Source of the DNA: Callorhinchus milii
Lineage: Eukaryota
Length of the DNA: 64,000 nucleotides
Direction of reading: 5' to 3'
NCBI RefSeq assembly: GCF_018977255.1
Contig: NW_024704742.1
Location: 67,706,001-67,770,000 of the forward strand
The translations under genes were made by a program, and so were the position numbers. A model generated the notes under the pieces. The model was given only the letters and a program-made list of their open reading frames with translations. It did not search any database and was not told the DNA's origin. Positions 1,522-63,532 of this stretch are shown here, piece after piece. Each line of letters opens with the position of its first letter. Position 1 is the first letter of the stretch.

Positions 1522-37172
<35,651 letters not shown>

Positions 37173-38001: not shown

Positions 38002-41000
38002 GTGAGTGCTGCGGAGATGGAGCCGTGCCGGGGGGGGCGCGGGCCTTTCGACAGGGAGAGGCGGGCGGGCGGGCGGGAGAGAAGGCGATCTTGGGCGGGC
38101 GGGCGTGAGCGAGGGCGGGCGGCCGCGTGGGTGACGGTCTGACCTCGCGCGGCTCTCAACGGTCGCAGCGCGAGGCCCGGGGGTGGCAGTTGGTAGTGAT
38201 TTCAAACCCCACGTCAGGACGTGGCGCCACACGGTCTAAACTGACACCAGTGCAGTGCACTGCACTGTATCGTCTGAGGTGTTGGTCCTTCGTGTGAGAT
38301 GTTAAGCCGAGGTCCCCCCTCCCTCCCTCTCTCTCTCTCTCTCCCTCTCTGCCTCTGTCCAGGTGGATGTTAAAGATCTCATGGCGCTATTCAAAAAGTG
38401 TAGAGTCTCTCTCTCTCTCTCTGTCTCCCTCTGTGACTTGGCCAACAATCCCCGCACATCAACATGGGGTCGCTCACCCACCCCACCCCACCGCTGTTTG
38501 CGAGGCGTTGCTGCCGCGCAAAACGATTGCCGCGGTTTCGCCCCATAAATACGGTCGCTGCACTTCACGGTACGTCCCGTGCAGCACCTTGGGATGCCCT
38601 CCCGATGTGAACGGCGCGGCGCGGCGCCAAGTGTCGGGACAGTTATTACTGTGTCAAGGCAGCTGACTGCATGTGGGGAGAAACCGCCTGTTGCAGCCCT
38701 TGTTATGCAGCAGTTTGGGAGTGTATGGATCCGAACCACCGTGTTATTTATTACAGGGCCTCCGAAAGCTTAATAGTCTTGTCGATAACCGATTGCTTTG
38801 GGTTGATTGGAGACGAAGTGTCGTTGATTACACCCCAAAGCGCTTTGCTTTTCATCGTTTTCAGATGGACGTCCTTACTCGAGGTCGACGTTTCAAGGGG
38901 GAGAATTGAAAGTCTTGTCAATCGGTTTTGAAAAAAGGGACTCGGTTGCTTTACAAGGAATATTAAGGGTTACAGCGAGCGAGCAAACTCCGTTAGAGCA
39001 GTTAACTTGTGGGGAAAAAAGCACCATCCGTACACACAGAAGGGACATTCACGTTTTCTTTCCAGTCAGAACCATCTCCAAATAGTTTTTGGAGACAGCA
39101 AAGATGAATTCAATTTTGGTTTCTCACCTGCACAGAATCAAAGCTCATCACAACAGAGTGTCTTCACGTTCTTTTAAAGAAACATGCCTTAATTAATTAT
39201 AGATTTGAGAATCTGAGATAGAAAAGATTGAAATATGATTTTTAGTAAAATTATATTTCCCATTTTTGCATACTGTATTGTAATATTCATGTGTGGTCAT
39301 AATTGAAATTATTCTAGCATGATTTTAAATTGCAGTTCTTTCATTTTAACAAGATTGTTGCTAGAGCATATAAGCTTTAAATATTCCTTGTTAAGTCATT
39401 TGAGCTGACACCTACCCATTTCAGAGGTGACTGTTGTATTATAATTCCCGAAAGCAGGAATTACGTGGAGTCCTGGAGCACAGTGGTTAGAGCAGTCGCT
39501 TTGCAAGCGAGAGTTCTGAGTTCAATTCCAGGCAGAGGGCGAAACCTTGGGCAAGTTTCCTTACTCCACACAGAGCCTAATAATAATCCCTCCAAAACCC
39601 ACAACAATAATAAATTGGTCATTTTCAATCTACGACTGTTTGTGGGACATTGCTGTGCGCAATTGGCTGCCGCGTTCGCCCACAAATATACAGTCAATTC
39701 ACTTTACAGTGTGTTCTGTGAAGTGATTTAGGACGTTCTCTCGACGTGAAAAGCGGTATATCAAATGCAAGGATTATTATTATTATTATTTTCTGTGGGG
39801 TAGATTCTATGATTCTATTATATAATTATTTGATTTTTGCTTTAATTCTTTGACAGAAGTTATTCCTCCAGCCGTCTTCTATGTCAGCAAATTGCACCCA
39901 GCCAAACAGGTAATTTTTTACTGGTTCTCAATCAGTTCTATTGTAATTTCTGTTAAGTGTGGGTGCAAGTGAGTTACATTTGCAGTTGTACCACAACTTT
40001 GGTGGTTTCATTATTCAATGTTTTGAACTTTTAAGGTTCTGCAGAAGAGATCGTTATTCCAAGAAAGAAAACCTGGTAAGTATTGTCTATTTTTCTAAAT
40101 CTTCTAATTTGTTTCTGAATATCATTTTAATCCTTTCAAAAAAAACTAATAATTTAGAAACTTAATCCATGATTGTTTGTGGGGCACTGCTTTGTGCAAT
40201 TGGCTGCTGTGTTTCGCCCACAAAATATACAGTCAATTCACCTTACAGTATATGCTGTGAAGCGCTTTGAGACGTCTCGAAGACTTGATAAGGTGCTATA
40301 TCAGATGCATGGATTAAACATGGATAAAAGTAGTGCAGTTGATGTAGTTTATATGGACTTTCAAAAGGTATTTGACAAAGTGCCACATGAAAGACTTGTA
40401 AGAAAGATAGAAGCCCATGGTATAAAAGGGACAGTGGCAGCATGGACCCAGAACTGGCTGGGAGACAGAAAGCAGAGAGTTGTGGTGAACGGCTGCTTTT
40501 CTGACTGGAGGGAAGTGTACAGTGGTATCCCCCAGGGATCGGTATTAGGACCACTGCTCTTCTTAATATACATAAATGATCTGGACTTGGGTATAGCAAG
40601 TACCATTTCCAAGTTTGTGGACAACACAAAGTTAGGTAGGGTGGTAAACAGTGAGAAGGATAGCAGCCAACTGCAGGAAGACATAGACAGAATGGTAAAA
40701 TGGGCAGACACATGGCAGATGAATTTCAATGTAGATAAATGCGCGATAATGCATTTTGGTAGAAAGAATGAGGGGAGGCAATACAGGCTGGTAATACAAT
40801 CTTAAGGCGGGGGTGAAAGAACAGAGAGACCTGGGGGTTCAGGTAAATGAATCCTTGAAGGTGGCAGGACAGGTAGATAAGGCTGTAAAAAGGGCAGATG
40901 GGATACTAGGCTTTATAAATAGGGGCATAGAGTACAAGAGTCAGGAGGTTATGATTAACCTATATAAAACACTGGTTAGGCCTCAGTTAGAATATTGCGG

Positions 41001-44000: not shown

Positions 44001-47000
44001 ACTCTTTGTTCCTGGCCAACAATATCGTAAGTAATATTTGTTACTCACTCCATGGCTGTCTGTAGGATACTGCTGTGCACAAATTGGCTGCTGTGTTCGC
44101 AAATCGCATACACAAATCTAATATGGATCCGGTCCTTAACCACCGTTCCCCTGGGGTATTCTCATCCTAACAACGCATTCCTCCTAATCTTACCCCTTTT
44201 TATTTTTGCTCCTTTGAGAGCTATCTGAAATTGTCACTGAACTCACCAACTAGTGGAAATATGTTTATACTCTATTAAAGTCATCTATCAGATCTCCCTT
44301 CAATCTTCTCTGTTCCAGTTAAAATGGGCTCAAATTCCTGTAGTCTATGTTCAGGCCAAATCACTCATCTTTCCTGTCTAGCTGTTCACTTAAAAATGAC
44401 ATTATACTATTCAAAAGGAGAATTTTAACGACCTCTATCAAGTCTTGCCTCGAGCTTCTTTGTCCCAATGAAAATAGGCCCAGTTTCTGGAGTCTCAGGG
44501 TTGTGCCGACCAACAATCCTAGATAAGTTGGTCATTCACCCCAAGGAATTTTGTGAAACTTTGCTGCTGGTATTATATTCACTACACTTCACAGTATTTA
44601 CCTGTGAATCGCTTTTAACATGACACTTTGGGAAGTTTAATTTTATTAATGGTGGTGGGGTGGGTGCATAAACACGGGTTGAGGATTGTATGAAAGCTTC
44701 AAAGCAAAAGGATGAATTTTATGCGTTTATTTTTCCGTTTAGTGTTTAATGCCTCAGCAGCTGGAGCCACTGATAGAAGAGATCAGCGAGGCTGCCTTGA
44801 AGGAACGGATTCAACTGCGGAAAGTGAAGGACTCGGTCAGTCTGTACGATCAACTTGTACAAGCAGGTTAGGCTTCACCTGTATTTGTGTAAACTGTATA
44901 TGCGGATTTACTTTTATATAATGCCTTTCAGGTCAGGAGGATCTCCCAGGGTATTTAATAATAATGGCTTGGAACCCAAGGTAGGATTGGGAGCCAAGAG
45001 GGAGAGGGGAAAGGTGACCAAAAGTGTGGTCAAGGAGGTAGGGCTTGAGACGGAACTTTGAAAGAGGTGAGGAAGGGACCAAGTCAACACAGTCTGGTAT
45101 GGGGGCAGATAGACTGAAAACCCAACCGCAGATTGTGTGGTGGCTGGAATGGGAGGCATAAAGCAGGTGGTATAATTAGCCATAAGATGGTAACTGCTCA
45201 CACAGGAGGCTCAGGAGATATCAACAGCCTGATTCTGTTATTTCTAGACACCCACACACACCCATGTCAAGAAGAGGGATCACTGGATAGTGATCAGCCA
45301 CAGGCCCCCTGCCTCATTTATCCCTGTAGAGCCCATGGTTGTTAGGTCTAAGCTGGGACAGAAATTGAAGCTACAGTTTGCTTTGGTTCACTGGACTGGG
45401 GCTCCGATGTAACATGAAATTCTGTTGGAATTGAAGGACGCTCCAAGCGTAAGAAGCCATCAGACTTTGATATTTGTATTTTCCTCTACAGGGACTCCTC
45501 TGTCTCTTGGGACCACAAATGGCTTGTTGGATCTACTTTGTGTTTATGGAGACCAAGAGCCGCCCAGTGATGATCAGATAGAGCTCGGAGAGGGTGAAAG
45601 TCTGGTAATGAAAAGTCTGCTCCTTTGATGAACAATAATAATGCTAGCATTAAATATAGCAACAGGCTTTACGATAGTAACTAGTGACTGCGTATTTGTA
45701 GGCAAACACAGCAGACAGTGTACGCGCTGCAGTGTCCCACAAACAGCCATGAAGTAAATGACCAATTTAATTTGGATGTTCATTGGTCAGAACAATGGGA
45801 GAAACTCCCTTCTCTGTTCGAATAATACCATGAGATCTTTAATGTCTGTCCAATGGACAGGGCCTCTGACAGTGCAGCACTCAGCACTCAATCGAGTTCT
45901 TTTTTCAGTGCTGTTTGTGGGCTTGGCCTCAACAGCCTTTTGTAGTAAAACAGTCTGTACCCTGAGGTATTGTTTTTAGGTGATCAGTGATTACTTTTTG
46001 CTATAAGGTGTCTCTGTAGCTGAATATGTATCTGTCCTGTAACTGAATATGAACAAGACGGAAGCCATATTCCTTGGCTCCTGTCAACATCTTCACTCTA
46101 AATTCCTCAACCTCCCTGGGCTCAGACTCACCGAACCATTACACAATCTAGGTATCCAGTTCGAACCCCAGCCGTCCTTCCTCCCCCAAATCTGGTCACT
46201 GACCAGGACCGCCTTCTTCCACCTCCGCCACATTGCCCGAGTCCCACGTTTACCCTAAATGCAGTCGAAATACTCGTGCATGTTTTTGTCACCTCCCGCT
46301 TGGATTACTCCAATGCACACCTCGCTGGTCTCCCCAGCTCTGCAATTTAAAAAATCCAGCTCATTCAGCACTCTGTCGCCCGCATACTGACCCAGACCAA
46401 ACTCTGTACATCCCATCAGTTCTGGCCAGGTTCCACTGGCTCCCCATCACCGAATGGATCAACTTCAAGATCCTCACACTCATGTTCAAATCCATTCACT
46501 CTCTGGAATCTTCCTAACTCCAACCTCCTCACTCCACAATCCACCACCTGGTGCTTCCACTCGACTGGCACCGGCCTCCTGCTCGTCCCTCGCACCCTCC
46601 GCCCCACCATTGGAGGTCGCGCTTTCAGCCACTACGCCCCGAAACTCTGGAACACTCTCCCTCAATCCCAGTGCCCTGCCCCCCTCACCTTTTCCTGCCT
46701 GAAAACTTTCCTCTTCGACCCTACTTACGGCCGCCACCTCCCTCCCCCGGCTCGGAGTCAGGCTCCGCCACTGTTAAGCGCTCTGAGATGCTACCCTACG
46801 TAAGTGCAAGTTGTTGTTGTATGTGCTAACCTCCAGCTGTATTCCCCCCCCCCACTGGAAGCCAGCAGCCATGAACACACAGAAGCGGAGAGGGCGCCTA
46901 CGTAAAGCTTCAGAGCTGCTTACCATCACCTGGAGGTAAGAGCACCTGGTAATGGAGCCCCTGTCACTAGAATCCTAGTGCAGGGGGAAATCACTGAGTC

Positions 47001-50000
47001 AAGTAGAGAGGGAGAATCACAGACCAGCAGGGATACACACTTCATACATATATTATACATACTTTATTACTAATAGTCTTATTTGTTTAATCGCCTCTCT
47101 CCTGTACGAAGCTGGTGCCTTTGCCAGTTGCATTTCAAAAAGTCTTGTATTTGGAAAAAAAATTAATTAATTCACAAAAAAGTGCTATCTTAACAACTTG
47201 GATTTTGGTAGTTATCACATGTGTTGCAATTAAACACTGCAGAAATCTTTTTGGTGATGGAGGAGGGAAGAGCGAGTTACAGGTTCTGAAAAGACTTAAC
47301 TAGCTGAAAATATGAGCATACAACAACTCATTTACATTTGTATCAAGCCTTTCACATATGGAGGACATTCAAGGAGCTTAATAATAGCTTGGCACCTGAG
47401 CTGGAATGTATTGTTCACTTTTTTAATGTTTCTTTTTTCTTCTTCCCTCCATTCAGAGACAACAACAATGCTGAAAGGATATTTAACCTGATGCCCGAAA
47501 GGAACGAACACTCATTTTGCACACTGATTAGAGGAATGGTTAAGGTACTGTTCTTCAAACTCTCTGCCGGGTGTTTTTGTTGACCGTTATCGTACCGTCG
47601 CTTGAGGAGTGTGTCTTATCTTGTTCCCGTTTGTCTCCTCAGTTTGGAGCCTACACAAAGGCGATCAACATGTACACAGATTTGCTGAACAACCGAATGA
47701 AAGGTGAGAGTTTGAAAAGACTCTTGACCCATAAGAACTCCTAGAATTGCAACCAGCATTTCTCTCTGTGTACACGGCTGCAGGGGTAGTCTTAATAATA
47801 AGTAATCCTTGCATTTAACCTAGCGACTTATCATGTCGTTGAAACGTCTCAAATTATACTGTAAAGTATATTTGTGGGTGAAACAAGCCCCTTTCACTTT
47901 AACACAGTGTCTCAAAGTGCTTCATAGGATTTACTGTAAAGTTTAGTGACTGTTCATTCGGTAGGTACATGCCTACAAGGAGAAAAAACTTGGACACATT
48001 GATGAAAAGAGTAACCCTAGCTGGGTGAAGCTTGCCGGACAGTGTTCACAATGGCATGCTTTAGCCGGTTAAACTCCAGCAGAGCCCCAATACACTCCCT
48101 GGGATCTGCAAGCTTCAGCTCTTGTCAACCTGCTCTTAATATTTTCTGGACTTATGGAAGCAGAGTGGGTCCTTCCAGATAGACAGTTCACATTCCATTC
48201 AAGACATAGGCAAATTTATCCTACATCTGTGGAACTCTCAGTCTGATTTGGATAATATTAAACATGGCAATGGGTTTCCTCATGTGTCATACACGAGGAA
48301 AACCATTTCAGTCATGGGGTCATGTGGCGACTGACCCCCCCCCAAAACACTCACCTGGTCATGTAGAGCGAGACATTGCACCCTGACACTTGTCTCCGAT
48401 TTCATATTGCTGAGAGATATTCACTATTATTCATTCACGACATTATGCATGTGACCCAAAAATCACTGGGTCTCCCAAGGAACTGTTGGCAGATATTAAT
48501 TGGAATATAATTCTTTTTAAGGAACCCAATTTGTTTACCAGCAAGTGTTGTGTGTTTTTTGTTTTACAGCTGATGTTCACACCTTCAATGCACTGATAGC
48601 AGCAGCCCCTGAGCTGAAGGAGAAGTACAATGAGAAATTGGATTTTATTGTGGTGAGCGTAAAAATAATACTTGCATTTGATATAACACTTTAACACGTC
48701 ATTGAGCCACCTAGAAGGGTTTCACAGGATATACTGTAAAGTGGACTGACTGCATATTTTGTGGGTGAGCATTGGAAGTTAAAGTTGGAAATATGCAATG
48801 ATTACCTGGACAGTAAACTTAGCAAGTGGATTTCATGTGTTTATGGTGTTCTGTGGTTTGAATGGGTATGTGCTGACCTGTGAGCCTTCCTGTTTTGAGT
48901 CATTTAACTTTTGTGTAACAGGACTTGTTGAAGCAAATGGCAGAGCAGGAGGTGCGGCCAAACCTGTTGACCTTTAACTCTGTGTTGAAGAGTTTTCGTA
49001 GGTGCGGGGCATACGCTAAAGGACCCTCCTTGCAAGTGGTGAATGAAATGAAAGCACTTGGCATCGGTATGTTACTGTGTACAGTGTGTTAAGACTTAAC
49101 TTCATAGTCATTTGCGCAGAGTGTGACGATAATAATTTGATATAGTGCTTTTCACGTCCGAAGAACATCCAAAAGCAATTCACAAGATTTTACTGTGAGT
49201 GGAGTGACTTGTGCATTTATATAGTGCCCCTCACTCAGGAACGCTACACTGCATGAGAGGTGCTATATAAATGCCAGTTGTTGTAGACAAGCGATAGAAT
49301 TAACTGAATAACACTGTGTCCAAGGTATGATAAAATTGACTCTAGCTTTGGGTACAGGTTGTGATATTATTTAGCATTGTGTTGAGTACAGTGAGTATAC
49401 TTCAGTCACTTTGTGTGTTCAGTAACATTGGTGTATTTTAAAGTGATATCTCTGATCCCAGTGTGATGAAAGCTGAGCCATTCTGTGTACCTTGTGTTCC
49501 TGGCAATGATGATTGGCGCAGGGGTACTTACCTCAGCTGGATAATGGGAGCTGAGTGCTTGCGTCTTCTGCTCAGCCTACGTGTGGTGGGCTGTTCAAGG
49601 AGCGTCTGCACGAGAAAAACGCCTAAATCTGAGCCAGGGCTGCTGAGAGACAGAGTGAGATTTGTTTGAAGGGAAATGCAGGATTAACAGGAGCTGAGTG
49701 GAGGAATCCCTGCTGCCAGTCTGCATCTCCAGTCCTGCCGATGAGCCAGGGTAGTGGTGCTGATGCTGTTCGCACGATTCTTACTGAACTGCTTCCCCAG
49801 TTCTCCTTCCTGGTTCCAAGCTTCTGTGCGTGCAGCAGAACGTTTTCTTCAGCACATTTGCAAAGACCTGGTACCTGCCATCCATGTAGCGAGGTTCAAA
49901 CCTGCATTTGTTGGAGGTAATGACTACCTCTAATGAGGTAAATGGGGTCTCCTTGGAGTTGAACTGGCTCCAAGGTGACATGCCTGGCAGTGGAATGTTG

Positions 50001-53000
50001 GAATCGAGCCAGGCCTCTGTGGTGGTCTCGGTAGTCCGATTCCTGAGCCAGACGGGTGCGCATTGTTCCAGGGCACTGCTGATGACAGCACAGCCAGTCT
50101 GGCTCATTGGCACTGTCACTGGGAGTAAAGAGTTATCCCACTCAGCTCCTGTTAACGCTGCAAGCCAAAGCCCTAACGGGTAGGGTAGTCCTAGCGGGAA
50201 AAGCAGCAGGAAAGCTTGCCAGATGGCAATATCAATGTCAAGCTATGTGGATTTAACTGGTTAGACTCAAGCAGTACCCCAACACAAACTCTGGGGTCCC
50301 CAAGCCACGGTTCTTGCCAGATTGATCTTCAGTTATGGGAATATTGATTCTGTGTGTGTGTGTGGAGCGGGTCAATTTACAGGAACATTGGGAATAAAAT
50401 TACGTAAATTTCCCATTGTTTAAAAAAAAGCTTGATTCCAGTCTCATAACCATTTGTTCCAACTAAGGCATGAATGTTAACGTGTCCTTCAATTTCTTTA
50501 ATTCCCGTTTTAGAGCCATGTTTGGCCACCTTTGATCACCTTCTTGCCATATTCTCAAAATCTGGTAAGTTGTTTTTTTTTAGTTGAATGCAACCCAAGA
50601 GCCAGGTTTCTTGAGTTTAATGAAGTTCAATATCTAATATAATTGGATGAGATTTTTTTTTGCTTCTGTTTTGTTCTACAATGTTTCCAGGTTCACAAGG
50701 TATTTCCTGTTCAGTCGCTCGCTTCCGATTCTCTAGACCTGTTAAGTTCCATTGGTCTATAATGGGCGTGAAAGACATTGACTTCAGTGGGTGTGGTGTG
50801 TGTGTGATACATATACATTGACAGTGCAGGGGTAGGGGCTCAGGGGTACAGACCTCAGCTGGATAATGGGAGCTGAGTGCAGATGTTATCTGTTCAGCCT
50901 GGGTGTGGTGGGTTGTTCCAAGAAGCATCTGCATGAGAAAAAACGCCTGTATCTGAGCCTCTGGAACAAGTCCCTCGTAAAGCCAAACAGTGGTGAAATC
51001 TGAGTGGTGTCAAAGACTGAAAGTTAGGGTATATCTTTATGTATTCATATGCCTGTTTTACATTGATTCAACGCCTTGGGACGTCCTCCCGACGTGAATG
51101 GCGCTATACAAATGTAATCTTGTTGTTGTTGATACACAATCTCCACTGTAAATCGGAATAATTGAATACCATATTAGAGCTATCTAGGCAATTCGACAGT
51201 TCATCTGCCCTGGGAAAAAGGACATGTGTTCCTCGGTATAGTTGTTGTTCAGGTTACCACCCACTCGCCCCCCCCCACCGTTTGAAATTCCAGTTTGCCT
51301 TGATCTTCTTTTCTTTTCCTCCACCCCAAATCCCCTCTACCTTGAATAGCCTGTTATCAGCCTGGCTCAAAATGTTTTAGGTTCAACTACCACATTGTGG
51401 TTGAAGTTGAGCTCTTATAGTCTAGACTGACACTCCAATGCTGTTAGGGGAGCATTCTCAGAGGTTCTGTCCTGTGGATCAGACTTTTAAACCAACTAAT
51501 GTTCAGACAATTAATCAATGTAATGTGGATATTAAAGATCTCATAACATTATTCAAAAAAGGAGGTACTATAAGGTGTCCTGGCCAACAGTCCTCCAGAA
51601 AATAATTGGTTATTCACTTTGAAGCTGTTTATGGGACATTGTTGTGCACAAATAGGCTGCCGCGATTGCCTGCAAATATACGGTCACTTCACTTTTTACT
51701 GTAATTCTTGTGAAGAGCTTTGAGACGTTTCAGCAATGTGGTGGTATATCACATGCAAATATTAATATTGTGTAGGCTGGCATCCAGGGCTTCACAAAAT
51801 AATAATCATTTGAAATGATTCAAAACATCTCCAATTACTGTCGTGTTGTGACACGTTAATGTAGACAAATGTGGCAGCCATTTTGCCCATAGCAATGACC
51901 CACAAACAACCATGAAGTGAATGATCAATTTTATCTGGGGTGTTGGTCATGGGGGAGAAACTCCCCCTTTTGATTTGTGTTGTTGATTTGTTTAACATAA
52001 CAGTAAAAAAATGATTCTTGCATTTGTTTTACCACCTTTCACTTTAGGAGAGTGCCTCAAAGTGTTTCACAGGAGTCTCTTGTAAAGTGTAGTGACTTTC
52101 ACTGACAAAAGAACAGCCAGATTTAGCATCTGAGGCAGCAACTCAACAACTTCCCCAGTCCTTGCAATCAATTCAATTCCCCCAGTCAATGGCTAAGTTG
52201 CTAAAGATTAAAGTTTTGTGTATTGACCTATCAAGTACTATACATCTCTCACTCTCTCTCTATCTGTCTGTGTCTGTGGGCTTGGGTGATAACGCACATC
52301 ATTACCTGCAGTACTGTAACATTTTTCTCTTTATCCTCAGTCATAGCTGGTCGGTCACAGGCAGACATTATCTTTAAGATCTTTGATGAAATGGAACAGA
52401 AGTATTTTGTTCCCCAGGATCCTGATGATGGTAGGTGTTATACAATTCCTACTGGGCTAATGTGAGATTAGCTTTACAATCAGCCTCTCCTTTGTCTTTA
52501 ATTATTTAAGGGCAGATGGTTGAAGCCAGGACACTGGACTTATTTAATAAACCAATTAAATTCTGTAATGGGAAGATTGCAGGGTTAATATACTGATGGG
52601 TTGAGACCAAGTGGGCCAAACGCACTTAAGGTGATTCAGAAAGCTGTAGTGGTGGAATGGATTGACATGTTTACAAGAGAGATGGACAGAAAAGGGGGTA
52701 GAGGCTTTATTAATGGGTATGACTAAAAAGAGTGGGCACTGAGATTAAAAGATATGATGAGGTCTAATATTGCTTTGCACATTGTAAAATGGGATGAAGG
52801 AAGCCCTTTGGGTCATTTGATCCCAGTGAAAAATATTTCAAGATTTTCTTCAGTAATTTTGATCTGTTTCCTTTCTTCACAGTATACTTCTTTACCAATG
52901 CTATAAAAGTGGTGAGTATTACCTTTGACTTGTATGAGTAAGGATGATGATTTTTTTGAGTGTTTGAAGTTGATTGATGAGTTGTCTAAAGTGCTATCTA

Positions 53001-56000
53001 TTGAATGAGATGCTGAATGAGGTCCTCTTACAGGGGAATATTAAAGATTTATTCTATTTTCTTAGCATTTCAGAGCATCCAGAATTCTGCAAATTCTTAA
53101 ATACAGCTTTTCACTCACAAAACATACAGTCAATGCGCTTGCACTTTACAATATATTCCATGCTCCCTCTTGGCGATGTCATCCATAGACATGGGGTAAA
53201 CTCCCATATGTATACAGATGACACACAAATCTACTTTGCCTCCTCCAGCTGCAATTCCAGGTTCGCCGATGTTCTATCAGCTTGTCTGGCAGACATCAGG
53301 GCCTGGATGAGTTCAAACTTCCTGCAGCTGAATGTGGACTGTAACAACTTTCATAGCTTTAAAGTTGGAGGCAGTTGTGTGAGTGTTCTGGAAGGATGAA
53401 TTCAATGGGCCAAAGGGTCATCTTTATCTGAACTGCTCTTGTGGTGGTGTGAAAATATTCATGTCTTTGTTTTCTTCCTTGCAGTGTCTGAACTTGAAAG
53501 ACCTTGAGCTGTCTTACAGAGTACAGAAGATAGTTGAAACTGGAGACAACAGGAAATTATTGGGGGACCCTTACCAGCAAAGCATTTACTAGTAAGAGCA
53601 ATTGATTCTTTAGTTGATGAACTTCAGCCTGCGTTCAAGTTCATAGGGTTTTAACACCGCCCACAAATATACGATCAATTCACTTTACAGTCTATTCTGT
53701 GAAGCCCTTTGAGACGTCGCGAAGACATAAAAAGCGCTATATCAAATGCACGGATTATTATTATTATATAACCTATTTAAAACGTGCAGCGGGAATGAGC
53801 ATTTTGACGTTGAGCTTAACATCAGGTGTGGATTAAAATGTCAGTGACAGGAGATGGGCAAGTTTATGTCGAGTTGATAATGAGGATTGATTTCTCTGAA
53901 GAATTTTCATTCTAAAGGGCAAAGGTTCTTAATCCCATTTTATTGTGTTGTCTTCACTCTCACACTCTTATTCATGGGCACATAAATTCCAGCTCTCACA
54001 CTCGCTCTTGCACATACTCATACACACAAACATGCACATTTCCTCTCACATACACACTCATTCACTCGTGTGTGTAGGTATCACTAGATAGTGATGGGGA
54101 GAGGGAACACTGACCACTGACTGACTGTTCTGTCTTTATTCCCAGCGGGAGGCTCTTTACCATGGTCTGCATGATGGAGAATATAGACATGGTTCTCAAG
54201 TGGTACAAGGAACTCATTCCGTCGGTAAGCTTATGTTTTAACCTGGGCGTGTGGCGATTTACATTTATATAGTGTTTCACATAGAAGAAATTTCTTAAAG
54301 TCCCTTTACACACTGGTAGTTAAAACCCTGGTCATTTTCATGTAAACATTGATGTTATGCAAACTTGTCCACAGTTGTACTATCCGAACACCCAGGGTAT
54401 GAAGGAATTACTGCAGGCCCTGGACACAGAGAACCGATTAGAGCTGATCCCGAGAATTTGGAAAGGTTTGTGACCCTGTCTCAGGGTTTGTTTATACACA
54501 TGTGTGTAAACACTGATGAATACTTGTGTGTGTGTACGTGAAAGCACCAATGGATGTCAGCGTGTGTAAACTGATGTATGTCTGGAAATGGCCGTGATTC
54601 ATTTTGGTGTGGTCTAGTTTCTCAGTTCAATGAGGGTTGAGGTCTCTTTTCTATCGCCCATAGACATTAAGCAACTTGGTCACTCGAACAAGCAGGATCT
54701 TGTGGAGGAGGTGCTTGAATTGATGGCCCGGGAGAAGCACAGTCCGCAGGTAAATGAGATTTCCCGGCTGTAAGTGAGGTCTCCTTGGAACTGAACTGTC
54801 TCTTAAGATGACAAGCTTGGCAAAGCAATATCGGTATCAAGTCAACCCTCGGTAGCTGTCTTGCTGGTCTGGTTCCTAAGCTAGGCGGATCTGCAGTATT
54901 CCAGGGCACTGCTGATGACAGTACAGCCAGCCTAAAACTGGGTTGCTTATGTGCGCCCTGTACTTGAATGTGTGCCTTATAGTTCAATGTTTGCATGGTA
55001 TTGAAGTTTTCAACTGTTTGGGTCTTGCAAAGAGTTCAGATATTATGATTCTTTTTCTTTCCAAAGTTACAAGTTGAGTTTGCTGACTGTGCGCTTGATG
55101 TGAAGACTGTGTATAATAATCTGAATCATAATTCCAAACTGGAGTGGACCTCTGGCTCCTTGGGGAACATCACCACTCTGCTCTTGAGAGGAGGCAGAAC
55201 TGATGATGCTTGGTAAGAATTTGTGAGATTGTTGTTACAACTTTCACGATGATGTAGCCTGCCGGCCCTGCATAATTAACAAGGTTCATGCCTGCAGATT
55301 TGGCCACAATCTGGATTAAGAACTGTCTCTTTACAGTGATCAAGCTCTCACCCATTCTGTCCCCTTCATCCTACCTTTAAATTCCACCTTAGAACCTTTT
55401 TGTCCCTGCCTTTTGTCACCTTTACTCCCACACCCCCTTACTACACTATTTGGAGTCCTATAGCTCAGTGGTTAGAGCATTCACTTTGCAAGTGAGACAC
55501 CTGAGTTCAATTCCAGGCAAAAACCTTGGGCAAATTTCCTTACTCCACACGCCTAATAATAATAATAATCCCTCCAAACCCAAAAAAAATTGGTCATTTT
55601 CAATCCACGACTGTGGGGCACTGCTGTGTGCATTTGGCTGCCGCATTTCGCCCACAAATATACAGTTAATTCACTTTACAGCATATTCTGTGAAGCGCTT
55701 TGAGATGTCGAGAAGATGTGAAAAGCGCTATATCAAATGCAAGGATTATTATTATTTCCAGCTCCCAATCAGCCCTCTGAAGCACTTTGAGGCATCCTCC
55801 CCACGTGAAAGGCGCTACATAAATGTAAGGATTGTTATTAAAGGGGACCTTCATTTTTCAGATGAAGCTATTGTATGACGAACATAAACAGCACAGTGCT
55901 GACCAATTTCACTTCACTATAACAGGTCTGACTGTAACTTGTCTGCACTCTAGTAGCTTCCCCAACACCTCTCCCACGAAAGCCATCTGCTCTTTCCCCA

Positions 56001-58575
56001 TTCTGTTTTTATTGTTCAAGGGTTTAGTACCAGTCCCTATACCTAGCAAATGATAGAAACCATTATTTTAAATTAATTTTCTTGCACTGAATCTAGACCT
56101 ATGTTGAATGCCATTTGTCAGCTGGTTGTGTAACTGAAAAACACTGATTTGTGTGTGTGATACATTGGCAGTGATGATCGGCGCAGGGGTACAGACCTCA
56201 GCTGGATAATGGGAGCTGAGTGCAGACATTATCTGTTCATCCTGCGTGTGGTGGGGTGTTCCAAGAAGTGCTTGCATGAGAAAAACTGCCTGTATCTGAG
56301 CCTCTACGACAAACCAAACCAAACAGTGTTGGGATCCAGAATTATGCAAGTGATATGCAAAAGCTGTGAATAACACTATCTGGTGTATATTACTATGTTG
56401 ATTTCTTGTATATCTAGAAATGTTGAGTACCATGGGTGCACTGTTCAGCCAACACTGTAATCACTAGCCACCCAACTTATTTTTAGTAATCTCACTTTCC
56501 AGCTCTTTTCCCAAATCCCTTAAGATTTTTTTTATTGCTCAGGTGCTTACCTAGTTCCCCTCCTGAACAAACCCAAACAAGCCTCTGAAGTGAAGATATT
56601 TCTTCAGATCTTTCTTCCTTATATAATAAATAATAATCCTTGCATTTGATATAGTGCTTTTCACGTCTTCTAGACAACAGCAACAACAAGATTACATTTG
56701 TATAGCGCCTTTCACGTCGGGAGGACGTCTCAAAGCGCTTCACAGAATACACTGTAAAGTGAATTGACTATATTTATGGGAGAAGTGTGGCAGCCAATTG
56801 CACACAGCAGTGCAAACAGTCATGGATTGAGTGACCAAATTGTTATTTTATTTATTTCCTTGAGGTATTATCAGGTATGTGGTGTAAGGAAACTTGCTCA
56901 AGGTTTCGCCCTACCTGGAATCGAACTTGGGTCTCTCACTTGCGAGGCGAGTGCTCTAACCACTGAGCTACAGGACTTCTTCTGCTTGCAGTCCTGAGAC
57001 TGTTTCCCGTTGTTACCAATTTTCCGAAATGACCATTTGTGTTTTTGTTTAAATAAAGATATATATATATATATAACTTGTCTTGCTTATTTCCAGGGCA
57101 ATGCTTCAACTATTCAAAGCTAACAACAGAATCCCTGGGTAAGTTGGTTGTGAAATAAATTGGCACACTAATAATGTAGAATCTTTTTGCAAAGTGCAAG
57201 CATTGTCCCAGTCGGTCATTGCAGATATGACCGATAAGTGGGGTCTCCTTGAAGCTGAACTGGCTCCAAAGTGACATGCTTGGCAACGGAATGTCGGGAT
57301 TGAGCCAGACCTCTGTGGCGGTTTTGATAATCCAGTTCCTGAGCCAAGCGGGTCCGTAGTATTCCAGGGCACTGCTAATGACAGCACAGCCCGGCCTGGC
57401 TCGTCAGCAGGACCTGGAAAGGCAGAGCAGTCAGTCTGGGGCAGGGAGTCATTCCACTCAGCTACTGTTAACCCTGCAAGCCAAATCCCTAATGAGTAGG
57501 TTAGGGTGGTCCTAGCTGAACAAGCTAGCCAAACAGCAATATCAATGGCAAGCTATTTGGATTTAATTGGTTAGATCCCAGCAGTACTCCAATGCACACT
57601 CGAGTTCCCAAGCCTTGGCTCTTGCCAACCTGTGCCTAATACTTTCTGGATTAGGTAAACAGGATGTGTCCCTCCAGGGAGAGAGTTCACATTCCATTCC
57701 AACAATCCATCTCTGGGATTTCCATGTGTAGGTGGATGCCTGGAAACCTCAGTTTAGTTTGGATACTCTAAGTATAGTGATGGGTTTCCGCATGTGTCAG
57801 ACACCTGGCTGACCGAAAAAAGATTGCACCTTGCGAAATTCCATGGGAATGTATGAAAATGTCTTGTTTCACACCTTTGGATTATGTATTGCATTCAACT
57901 AGATAGATATCTAAAAAGGAATAACATGCAGATCTCCTGGGGTCAAGCAACACTGGAAACATTCCTGAGAACACCTGCCAGCTTCCTACCTGCTATGATC
58001 AGGCATTGACATCGGCAGGACTGGGAAGTGCTGACTAGCAGCCTGTTTTTATAGTGTTCCCTGTATAATACTGGGGCTTATCTTGTGCCTCCCAACTCCC
58101 TACGATGCAGTAGGGCCGGCCTGCATCTTCTAAAGATTATTTTTTTTTCAGTGAATATTTGCTGGATGAGTTCTTGGACAGTGCGAAGGAGAGCAAGAAC
58201 AATGCTCTGGCTTGGATGTGGTGAAGCTGGCCACTGCTTTCAGTTTACCTGCTGCACCAAAGCTGGCCACCAGGGTGACCACTGAATTTCAACTGACCAA
58301 CGAAGACAGGTAAGGCTTTTGCAATAGTCTTTTAACATAAAACTCGTGAGAAATTTTTGAGAAATGATGGCACCATTTCTAAGGGAAACTGGAGGCATGT
58401 CAATTTGATTGACAGTGGTTAATGGTCTTTAATACTGGGTGCATTTATTTAAAAAAGTGAACTTTTTATTGTAAATTTTAAAACTTTCTGTTTTCTTTCA
58501 AACAGAATTGATCTGGATGAGCTGAATGCCACCAGCAGCGACAGCAGCGACAGCAGTGACAGTGATAAAGAATAA
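37913..58575 (+). CDS. PTCD3: Pentatricopeptide repeat domain 3 / mitoribosomal protein mS39 gene, 24 coding exons (apparent 1-nt deletion in exon 23)
   Basis: Spliced exons give [53 protein letters not shown] repeats and an acidic SDSSD tail. Exons total 2039 nt, one short of 680 codons. Confidence 0.97.
39466..39790 (+). mobile_element. Full-length tRNA-derived Deu SINE (short subfamily)
   Basis: Closely similar to 19812-20140. Confidence 0.92.
39857..39909 (+). CDS. PTCD3: PTCD3 exon 2 ([17 protein letters not shown])
   Basis: AG/GT bounded, 53 nt, phase 2-1. Confidence 0.85.
40036..40075 (+). CDS. PTCD3: PTCD3 exon 3 ([13 protein letters not shown])
   Basis: Donor GTAAGT; acceptor either 40036 or the in-frame CAG giving a start at 40045. 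Confidence 0.88.
40315..41540 (+). mobile_element. CR1-clade LINE, 5'-truncated
   Basis: [50 protein letters not shown] motifs; 3' GATTCTAT-type tail; inserted at a SINE tail. Confidence 0.93.
41746..41791 (+). CDS. PTCD3: PTCD3 exon 4 ([15 protein letters not shown])
   Basis: AG/GTGAGT, 46 nt. Confidence 0.95.
41889..41957 (+). CDS. PTCD3: PTCD3 exon 5 ([23 protein letters not shown])
   Basis: AG/GTAAGT, 69 nt. Confidence 0.95.
42530..43160 (-). mobile_element. L2-clade LINE 3' fragment
   Basis: [29 protein letters not shown] motifs. Confidence 0.85.
43579..43683 (+). CDS. PTCD3: PTCD3 exon 6 ([15 protein letters not shown]...FAEPSIP)
   Basis: AG/GTGAGT, 105 nt. Confidence 0.94.
44743..44866 (+). 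CDS. PTCD3: PTCD3 exon 7 ([23 protein letters not shown]...LVQA)
   Basis: AG/GT, 124 nt. Confidence 0.95.
45492..45604 (+). CDS. PTCD3: PTCD3 exon 8 ([24 protein letters not shown]...ESL)
   Basis: AG/GT, 113 nt, phase 1-0. Confidence 0.92.
46040..46815 (+). mobile_element. L2-clade LINE 3' fragment
   Basis: [28 protein letters not shown] motifs and tail. Confidence 0.87.
46862..46935 (+). CDS. PTCD3: PTCD3 exon 9 ([25 protein letters not shown])
   Basis: Donor AG|GTAAGA is clear; the AAG acceptor ending at 46861 is the only nearby AG that keeps phase. Confidence 0.8.
47457..47544 (+). CDS. PTCD3: PTCD3 exon 10 ([29 protein letters not shown])
   Basis: AG/GT, 88 nt. Confidence 0.96.
47643..47703 (+). 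CDS. PTCD3: PTCD3 exon 11 ([20 protein letters not shown])
   Basis: AG/GTGAGA, 61 nt. Confidence 0.94.
48570..48652 (+). CDS. PTCD3: PTCD3 exon 12 ([28 protein letters not shown])
   Basis: AG/GTGAGC, 83 nt, PPR motif. Confidence 0.94.
48922..49066 (+). CDS. PTCD3: PTCD3 exon 13 ([22 protein letters not shown]...EMKALGI)
   Basis: AG/GTATGT, 145 nt, PPR motif. Confidence 0.95.
49499..49638 (+). ncRNA. SNORD94: Box C/D snoRNA SNORD94 (U94) homolog, copy A, PTCD3 intron 13
   Basis: C box ATGATGA 49506-49512, U6-complementary guide GCGCAGGGGT 49516-49525, CTCAGCT/AGCTGAG hairpin, D box CTGA 49629-49632, 6-bp terminal stem CCTGGC/GCCAGG; PTCD3 is the known mammalian host gene. Confidence 0.9.
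50514..50564 (+). CDS. PTCD3: PTCD3 exon 14 ([17 protein letters not shown])
   Basis: AG/GTAAGT, 51 nt. Confidence 0.93.
50822..50960 (+). pseudogene. SNORD94: Degenerate SNORD94 copy B, PTCD3 intron 14
   Basis: Body and D box (50953-50956) align with the other copies, but the C box is absent and the guide reads GCTCAGGGGT. Confidence 0.75.
52341..52430 (+). CDS. PTCD3: PTCD3 exon 15 ([29 protein letters not shown])
   Basis: AG/GTAGGT, 90 nt. Confidence 0.92.
52883..52911 (+). CDS. PTCD3: PTCD3 exon 16 (YFFTNAIKV)
   Basis: AG/GTGAGT, 29 nt, phase 1-0. Confidence 0.9.
53150..53340 (+). mobile_element. L2 RT internal fragment
   Basis: [25 protein letters not shown]...[12 protein letters not shown], very similar to 11510-11690. 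Confidence 0.85.
53485..53591 (+). CDS. PTCD3: PTCD3 exon 17 ([13 protein letters not shown]...QQSIY)
   Basis: AG/GTAAGA, 107 nt. Confidence 0.94.
54146..54224 (+). CDS. PTCD3: PTCD3 exon 18 ([26 protein letters not shown])
   Basis: AG/GTAAGC, 79 nt. Confidence 0.95.
54375..54465 (+). CDS. PTCD3: PTCD3 exon 19 ([30 protein letters not shown])
   Basis: AG/GT, 91 nt. Confidence 0.95.
54664..54749 (+). CDS. PTCD3: PTCD3 exon 20 ([29 protein letters not shown])
   Basis: AG/GT, 86 nt. Confidence 0.95.
55067..55212 (+). CDS. PTCD3: PTCD3 exon 21 ([13 protein letters not shown]...GGRTDDAW)
   Basis: AG/GTAAGA, 146 nt. Confidence 0.94.
55451..55755 (+). mobile_element. Full-length tRNA-derived Deu SINE (short subfamily)
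   Basis: Same head, core and tail as 19812-20140. Confidence 0.9.
56166..56303 (+). ncRNA. SNORD94: Box C/D snoRNA SNORD94 (U94) homolog, copy C, PTCD3 intron 21
   Basis: C box GTGATGA 56171-56177, guide GCGCAGGGGT 56181-56190, D' CAGA 56192-56195, D box CTGA 56296-56299. Confidence 0.92.
56628..56978 (-). mobile_element. tRNA-derived Deu SINE with double tail
   Basis: Reverse complement of the same head and core. Confidence 0.88.
57097..57138 (+). CDS. PTCD3: PTCD3 exon 22 ([13 protein letters not shown])
   Basis: AG/GTAAGT, 42 nt, phase 2-2. Confidence 0.93.
57230..57813 (+). repeat. Unclassified ~600-nt interspersed repeat, longest copy
   Basis: Homologous to 1935-2359, 49925-50325, 23470-23710(-), 27836-28185(-) and several shorter pieces. 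Confidence 0.85.
58152..58309 (+). CDS. PTCD3: PTCD3 exon 23 ([20 protein letters not shown] / [13 protein letters not shown]...NEDR), frame-shifted as written
   Basis: AG/GTAAGG bounded, 158 nt; homology continues in the shifted frame after about 58211. Confidence 0.9.
58506..58575 (+). CDS. PTCD3: PTCD3 exon 24, terminal ([22 protein letters not shown])
   Basis: Acceptor after pyrimidine tract, TAA at 58573-58575, Ser/Asp tail as in other PTCD3 proteins. Confidence 0.92.
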
Positions 58576-63290: not shown

Positions 63291-63532
63291 TGTGTGTGTC
63301 TGTCTCCTATCCCCTGCCTTTCCCCGTTTGTATCTATGTGCACATCTTTCCCCCCACCTCTGCAATAATATTCATAAACTTCCCCTCCGACAATGAGTGC
63401 TCAATATCTCAGTGGTCCCTTGGAGCACTTTGCACAGGGGAGGACAAAGTGCGTCACTCAACCAGTCAGTTGCTTTATACACCCATGAGGGCTGGTCATC
63501 TTAATTGACTACAAGATTAAATAATCACTTAC

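Follow-up and report, generated by a model that had tools for sequence, protein, structure and literature searches.

We identified four copies of the small nucleolar RNA SNORD94 in the genome of Callorhinchus milii. Three are found in introns of PTCD3, which, judging from their sequences, most likely hold two working copies (A and C) and one broken copy (B). The fourth copy (D) is intact, lies in an intron of ZNF638, and is new; frog and zebrafish already provide examples of extra copies and changes of host. We consider it very probable that the four are SNORD94 paralogs with an ordinary history of birth, death and relocation, in which A and C are redundant, B is dead, D was copied at the DNA level, and PTCD3 is the ancestral host.

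SNORD94 copies in the introns of PTCD3

The window, the whole stretch of 64,000 nucleotides that was analyzed, was scanned with the Rfam covariance model RF00613 (SNORD94), whose gathering cut-off is 60 bits. Copy A matches the model with 130.2 bits (E 9e-31) at positions 49500-49637, copy B with 87.3 bits at 50829-50961, and copy C with 110.4 bits at 56165-56304, all on the + strand and all above the cut-off. A looser scan by E-value of positions 37000-64000 yielded no SNORD94 copies beyond these three. The identification as SNORD94 is based on full-length model matches, since the short guide word alone, allowing up to one mismatch, occurs 12 times in the window where 8.2 occurrences are expected, which is not above chance. 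All three copies are sense to their host, with A in intron 13 (49067-50513), B in intron 14 (50565-52340) and C in intron 21 (55213-57096), at distances of 876, 1379 and 792 bases, respectively, from the 3' splice site. An earlier sequence-only reading of this DNA had described three homologous, sense-oriented elements of the SNORD94 type in these introns, and both the RF00613 matches and our 24-exon gene model agree with that description. The features of the locus, in window positions, are as follows.

37913-58575, + strand: host gene PTCD3 (mS39), 24 coding exons, modelled from the splice sites read
49500-49637, + strand: copy A, intact, PTCD3 intron 13, with the strongest terminal stem
49506-49512, + strand: box C of copy A (ATGATGA)
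49516-49530, + strand: guide of copy A (49516-49525), which pairs with U6 G59-C68, and its D' box CTTA (49527-49530)
49533-49613, + strand: internal domain common to all copies, given for copy A; a six-pair hairpin and a long interrupted hairpin
49629-49632, + strand: box D of copy A (CTGA)
50829-50961, + strand: copy B, PTCD3 intron 14, with D' box CAGA and box D (50953-50956) kept
56165-56304, + strand: copy C, PTCD3 intron 21, with intact boxes and a weak terminal stem
56171-56177, 56181-56190, 56192-56195 and 56296-56299, + strand: box C, guide, D' box CAGA and box D of copy C

Copies A and C have box C (RTGATGA), box D (CTGA) and a common guide, GCGCAGGGGT. Their D' boxes differ, reading CTTA in A and CAGA in C. 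The terminal boxes (RUGAUGA and CUGA in the RNA) are likewise present at the ends of copy D. The U6 sequence used for pairing was taken from the C. milii genome itself (locus L005). Against this U6 the guide forms ten unbroken pairs, on G59-C68, in copies A, C and D, and in each of the three the guide base at position -5 from the D' box faces U6 C62. The kept boxes and guide, the difference between the D' boxes, and the assignment of the RNA as a SNORD94 directed at U6 C62, all of which the earlier reading had put forward, are therefore borne out. Its suggestion that A and C may not be equivalent is not supported at the level of the target, since the two share one guide and one register, and both D' words occur in a list of annotated D' variants (PMC11863803). 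The CTTA of copy A is without the consensus G; the D' box of human and chicken SNORD94, from the Rfam consensus and the chicken sequence, is CGGA and is off-consensus too. A second guide, preceding box D, was sought on U6 and U2 in every copy and gave at most six unbroken pairs.

The 5' part of the guide (49516-49522 in A) can also pair with a conserved GCC(T) word before box D (49618-49625), and the same is true of C and D. The GCC(T) word is kept in the Rfam consensus and in the chicken sequence as well. Such pairing would possibly extend the C/D stem and mask the guide until U6 is loaded.

The internal hairpins are paired in 98 of 100 cells across the copies. Among the four copies, 3 of 25 pairs of the internal hairpins change on both sides; this covariation is not significant, as 50 of 500 shuffles reach it. 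The duplex formed by the flanks is predicted to be strongest in A (-14.9 kcal/mol) and D (-12.1 kcal/mol), followed by C (-5.9 kcal/mol) and B (-5.3 kcal/mol). Compared with shuffled sequences, the folds have z scores of -2.84 for A, -3.31 for B and -0.20 for C, the last being no better than shuffles. Given the weak terminal stem and this z score, copy C may contribute little. B has kept its internal fold, which is slightly more than one would expect if it were an old dead copy. The main predictors of snoRNA expression are box conservation, the terminal stem and expression of the host, most non-expressed snoRNAs are intergenic, and distance from the branchpoint can be made up for by a terminal stem (PMC10234308). 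By these predictors A and D look like the best candidates for expression, C looks plausible with its weaker stem, and B would fail. No RNA record is listed for positions 49000-57200. Contigs from 4 of 24 listed runs, compared with the locus at 80% likeness, were dominated by repeats, and splice joints do not occur among the matches listed.

Copy B lacks box C. In its place stands a near-repeat of the guide word, at a point where the RF00613 alignment has a seven-position deletion, and no TGATGA was found in B or in the intron upstream (50565-50850). Its guide has a mismatch at position -9, leaving seven unbroken pairs with U6. B matches C at 117 of 133 aligned bases, and the two have flanks in common (50797-50962 and 56150-56305, 84%). 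Between A and C, 114 of 138 aligned bases are the same and no flank similarity is left. The split between A and C is thus the older, and B arose later. Since box C is absent we class B as a probable pseudogene, so the working number of copies in PTCD3 would be two, and the sequence of B is most likely that of a dead duplicate of a C-type copy. The three U6 guides previously proposed for PTCD3 are therefore three copies of which two would work. The expansion within the host gene proposed by the same reading is real for B, given the flanks it has in common with C, but B is broken. That the boxes, the guide and the first hairpin were retained despite 17% divergence suggests selection on both A and C.

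A fourth copy in ZNF638

Searching the genome with RF00613 gave four matches among 42 scored candidates, all on contig C1, and a DNA search recovered the same four copies (4 of 4 candidates). Copy D is located at G000:C1:72256375-72256512 (L020 4375-4512) on the - strand, 4.5 Mb from the PTCD3 copies, and scores 129.1 bits. It is identical to A at 135 of 138 bases. The boxes and guide are intact, and none of the three changes falls on the guide or on an invariant box base.

Copy D is sense in an intron of ZNF638, between RRM exons at 72261268-72261134 and from 72251946 downward. The best matches of the first large exon of this gene are elasmobranch ZNF638, and residues 764-808 of the ZNF638 ortholog map above D while residues 864-911 map below it. 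A small, frame-consistent exon ends about 340 bases upstream of D, and its match to ZNF638 orthologs is weak. No other snoRNA families were found in the seven loci around D. Neighbours of ZNF638 include an intermediate-filament gene (L037 3913-5067), a gene with an ALMS motif (L041 8234-8755) and apolipoprotein L (L046 3707-4615).

The duplicated stretch comprises two parts of PTCD3 intron 13.

49394-49935, + strand: unique part of intron 13 (copy A and its flanks), duplicated as D from G000:C1:72256604 downward on the - strand
49935-50320, + strand: copy of a dispersed repeat, matched by 40 of 40 scored candidates; D seems to switch to another family member here

The unique intron 13 sequence around D amounts to about 90 bases upstream and about 300 bases downstream. 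The 5' junction abuts a SINE fragment, and on the 3' side the unique sequence runs into the dispersed repeat. Of 30 diagnostic substitutions in the repeat part, D agrees with the family consensus at 26, whereas it agrees with A at 3, and D continues beyond the end of the repeat copy in A. The arrangement of this sequence suggests that D arose by DNA-level copying primed in the common repeat, and not by retroposition. Alternatively, the difference between the repeat parts of D and A may reflect later decay of the repeat next to A.

Three other origins or locations for D were considered and rejected. D does not look like a retroposed snoRNA, as the copy extends beyond the mature RNA into unique intron flanks; neither a poly(A) tail nor a target-site duplication, the criteria for a retroposed copy, was seen in its junctions. 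It is not part of a segmental duplicate of PTCD3, as the seven loci around it contain no PTCD3 exon match. It is also not in RRM2, as the ribonucleotide-reductase small-subunit loci of the shark are on other contigs.

When all flanking sequence is counted, D and A differ at 3 of 138 positions in the snoRNA and at 75 of 692 in the flanks (P=0.0006); the contrast is inflated by the repeat part of D and its agreement with the family consensus. With the unique flanks alone the figures are 3 of 138 and 30 of 388 (P=0.023). If D were neutral, the unique flanks would predict 5.3 differences where 3 are seen (P=0.22), so the contrast at P=0.023 can be explained by constraint on a single copy, A alone. 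The letters particular to D (at 49626, 49765, 49772 and 49775) are present in X1 run contigs, and the D stretch is also covered by one contig from a run that carries the label of a second organism; D is therefore unlikely to be an artefact.

We suggest, tentatively, that D could be a live SNORD94, under selection and made from the ZNF638 pre-mRNA, in which case a switch of host would have been caught midway with the originals still present. If so, D parallels the move to rrm2 that zebrafish has completed, and it places a U6 guide under the gene of an RNA-binding nuclear protein and not that of a mitochondrial ribosome protein. If it is expressed, D would be a clean natural example of a guide that acquires a second host while still present in the first.

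Comparison with SNORD94 in other vertebrates

The host of SNORD94 is PTCD3 in human, and zebrafish snord94 is reported in rrm2 intron 2 (PMC6023535). In zebrafish, SNORD94_a is present twice and lettered variants are described (10.1101/858936). The chicken copy is single and located in PTCD3 intron 12, and duplication within a gene has been described as the main route of snoRNA expansion (PMC2653536). The Xenopus tropicalis genes snoRD94a and snoRD94b are 5.3 kb apart on one strand and are both assigned to U6 C62, with the remark in the supplement 'no extra copy in human' (PMC6984369). More generally, a published trend is that copies of C/D snoRNAs are fewer in placentals and more numerous outside them (PMC3349704). 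With two copies in Xenopus, several in zebrafish and this trend, multi-copy SNORD94 is not in itself novel; the sequence-only reading had itself named routine multi-copy SNORD94 in non-mammalian vertebrates as something that would take the novelty away.

The association between a snoRNA and its host is often unstable across vertebrates (PMC13736004). Two ribonucleotide-reductase small-subunit loci are found in the shark (contigs C3 and C10), and neither contains any of the four RF00613 matches. Since the RNA is in PTCD3 in shark, chicken and human, and the shark reductase loci are without a match, parsimony supports PTCD3 as the likely SNORD94 host of the jawed-vertebrate ancestor. The earlier proposal that the host association predates the split between cartilaginous and bony fish is supported by the same argument. 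The data point from a cartilaginous fish thus roots the PTCD3 host and makes the location in zebrafish rrm2 derived.

The shark RNAs resemble human SNORD94 (U94, RF00613) in the full-length model match, boxes, D' guide, U6 Cm62 target and host. However, human has one copy with the D' box CGGA, while the shark has three in the host, one of them broken, and a fourth elsewhere, with the D' boxes CTTA and CAGA. In Xenopus, as in the shark, a pair of copies lies within a few kb on a single strand, both assigned to U6 C62; unlike the shark, no broken or dispersed copy appears in the supplement (PMC6984369). Zebrafish is similar in having more than one copy and a guide in a host other than PTCD3. The new host is rrm2 in zebrafish and ZNF638 in the shark, and the shark keeps PTCD3 copies alongside. 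The donor intron, flanks and junctions of copy D are still alignable.

Among the matches listed, no literature dealt with shark SNORD94 or a copy hosted by ZNF638. The main text of a 2026 study of host genes does not mention SNORD94, PTCD3 or shark (PMC13736004), and SNORD94 is unmentioned in three SNOntology supplement files. Automatic genome annotations probably list the matches reported here. The findings add little on mechanism, as the RNA, its target and the pattern of duplication are already known. What one locus and its offshoot offer is three stages of snoRNA turnover, in the apparently old paralogs A and C, the presumed dead duplicate B and the young copy D in a new host.

Proposed function and alternative explanations

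By extension from the human RNA, A and C would be released from the spliced introns of PTCD3, use boxes C and D to bind the C/D core proteins, and undergo LARP7-aided loading of U6. The sequence fit predicts that the guide before D' pairs with U6 G59-C68, and this would direct fibrillarin to 2'-O-methylate U6 C62, a modification again carried over from the human RNA. A and C would be redundant. Copy B, which putatively arose later by duplication of the C type within the gene and then lost box C, could presumably not be stabilised. Copy D, putatively about 540 bases of intron 13 copied at the DNA level and inserted in sense orientation into an intron of ZNF638, could be produced from that host. 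In human cells the level of SNORD94 alters methylation of U6 C62 (PMC6894857). SNORD94 is listed among the guides bound by LARP7 (PMC11863803; for LARP7 see also PMC10557570). Together, Cm62 and Cm63 promote m2G72 (PMC13109388).

It seems unlikely that A and C are functionally distinct, with A (and with it D) abundant because of a long stem and C poorly processed despite a better D' box, or with CTTA allowing the target to shift to C63 or C61 within a run of four cytidines. The two do differ in their terminal stems (-14.9 and -5.9 kcal/mol) and D' boxes (CTTA and CAGA), a degenerate D' box in Snord89 has been linked to methylation of two neighbouring bases (PMC11863803), and Cm62 acts jointly with Cm63 on m2G72 (PMC13109388). 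However, A, C and D have the same guide in the same register, CTTA and CAGA each appear among published variants, and the human and chicken CGGA departs from the consensus as well. Differences between A and C in yield or efficiency are possible. Less likely again is that A alone functions, with C and D heading to loss as B did. The stem and fold of C are weak, and the 3 differences of D in 138 positions fit neutral drift (5.3 expected, P=0.22). Yet in C both boxes, the complete guide and the internal pairing persist at 17% divergence from A, and the three changes in D spare the guide and the invariant box bases.

Copies A and C may instead be ancient paralogs of the jawed-vertebrate ancestor, one around intron 13 and one in intron 21. 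Shark and frog would have retained both, with reciprocal losses in chicken and mammals, and only B and D would then represent expansion in this lineage. We regard this history as rather doubtful, though it deserves more weight than the two readings just considered. The absence of flank similarity between A and C agrees with it, as does the position of human SNORD94, which we take to be near PTCD3 intron 21. The single chicken copy in intron 12 (PMC2653536) and the two Xenopus copies 5.3 kb apart on one strand (PMC6984369) also fit. However, by eye the 3' halves of A and C are closer to each other than to chicken, which argues for duplication or conversion within the lineage, and the host gene is unnamed in the Xenopus supplement rows (PMC6984369). 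An assembly artefact as the source of B or D is very improbable. A probable assembly error is present nearby, the one-base frameshift in PTCD3 exon 23, and the 5' end of B is absent from the run contigs among the matches listed, but D and A disagree at 30 of 388 positions in the unique flanks, the letters of D occur in the X1 contigs, and 16 of 133 aligned bases are different between B and C.

Host gene and neighbouring sequences

The product of our PTCD3 model is 100% identical over residues 1-624 to the UniRef C. milii mS39/PTCD3 entry P0004. Single exons match the PPR and Rib_mS39_PPR models below the curated cut-offs. At residue 625, in exon 23 (window about 58210-58220), there is a one-base frameshift relative to P0004, which is probably an assembly error. 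Exon 9 (46862-46935) has an unusual acceptor context (AAG after a run of C) and agrees with P0004. The next gene after PTCD3 is IMMT, on the other strand (Mitofilin match). On the other side, the segment 37098-37172 on the - strand is the first coding exon of a gene arranged head-to-head with PTCD3. This gene reads like POLR1A, which we take it to be, and the order POLR1A-PTCD3-IMMT would then presumably equal the human order.

A degenerate SNORA70-like copy was identified at 63402-63514 on the - strand, sense in an intron of IMMT, with 41.4 bits against a cut-off of 40; a strong SNORA70 copy (106.9 bits) is found on contig C31. The window also has tRNA-like Rfam matches at 19722-19886, 39473-39535, 55461-55516 and 56906-56977. 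Those beginning at 39473, 55461 and 56906 are the heads of an abundant SINE, and those remaining are similar in appearance. Elsewhere in the genome, U6 genes are clustered at G000:C21 1.10-1.17 Mb, with at least four best matches of equal score, and a tandem U2 array at C4 21.33-21.45 Mb has at least 17 best matches of equal score.
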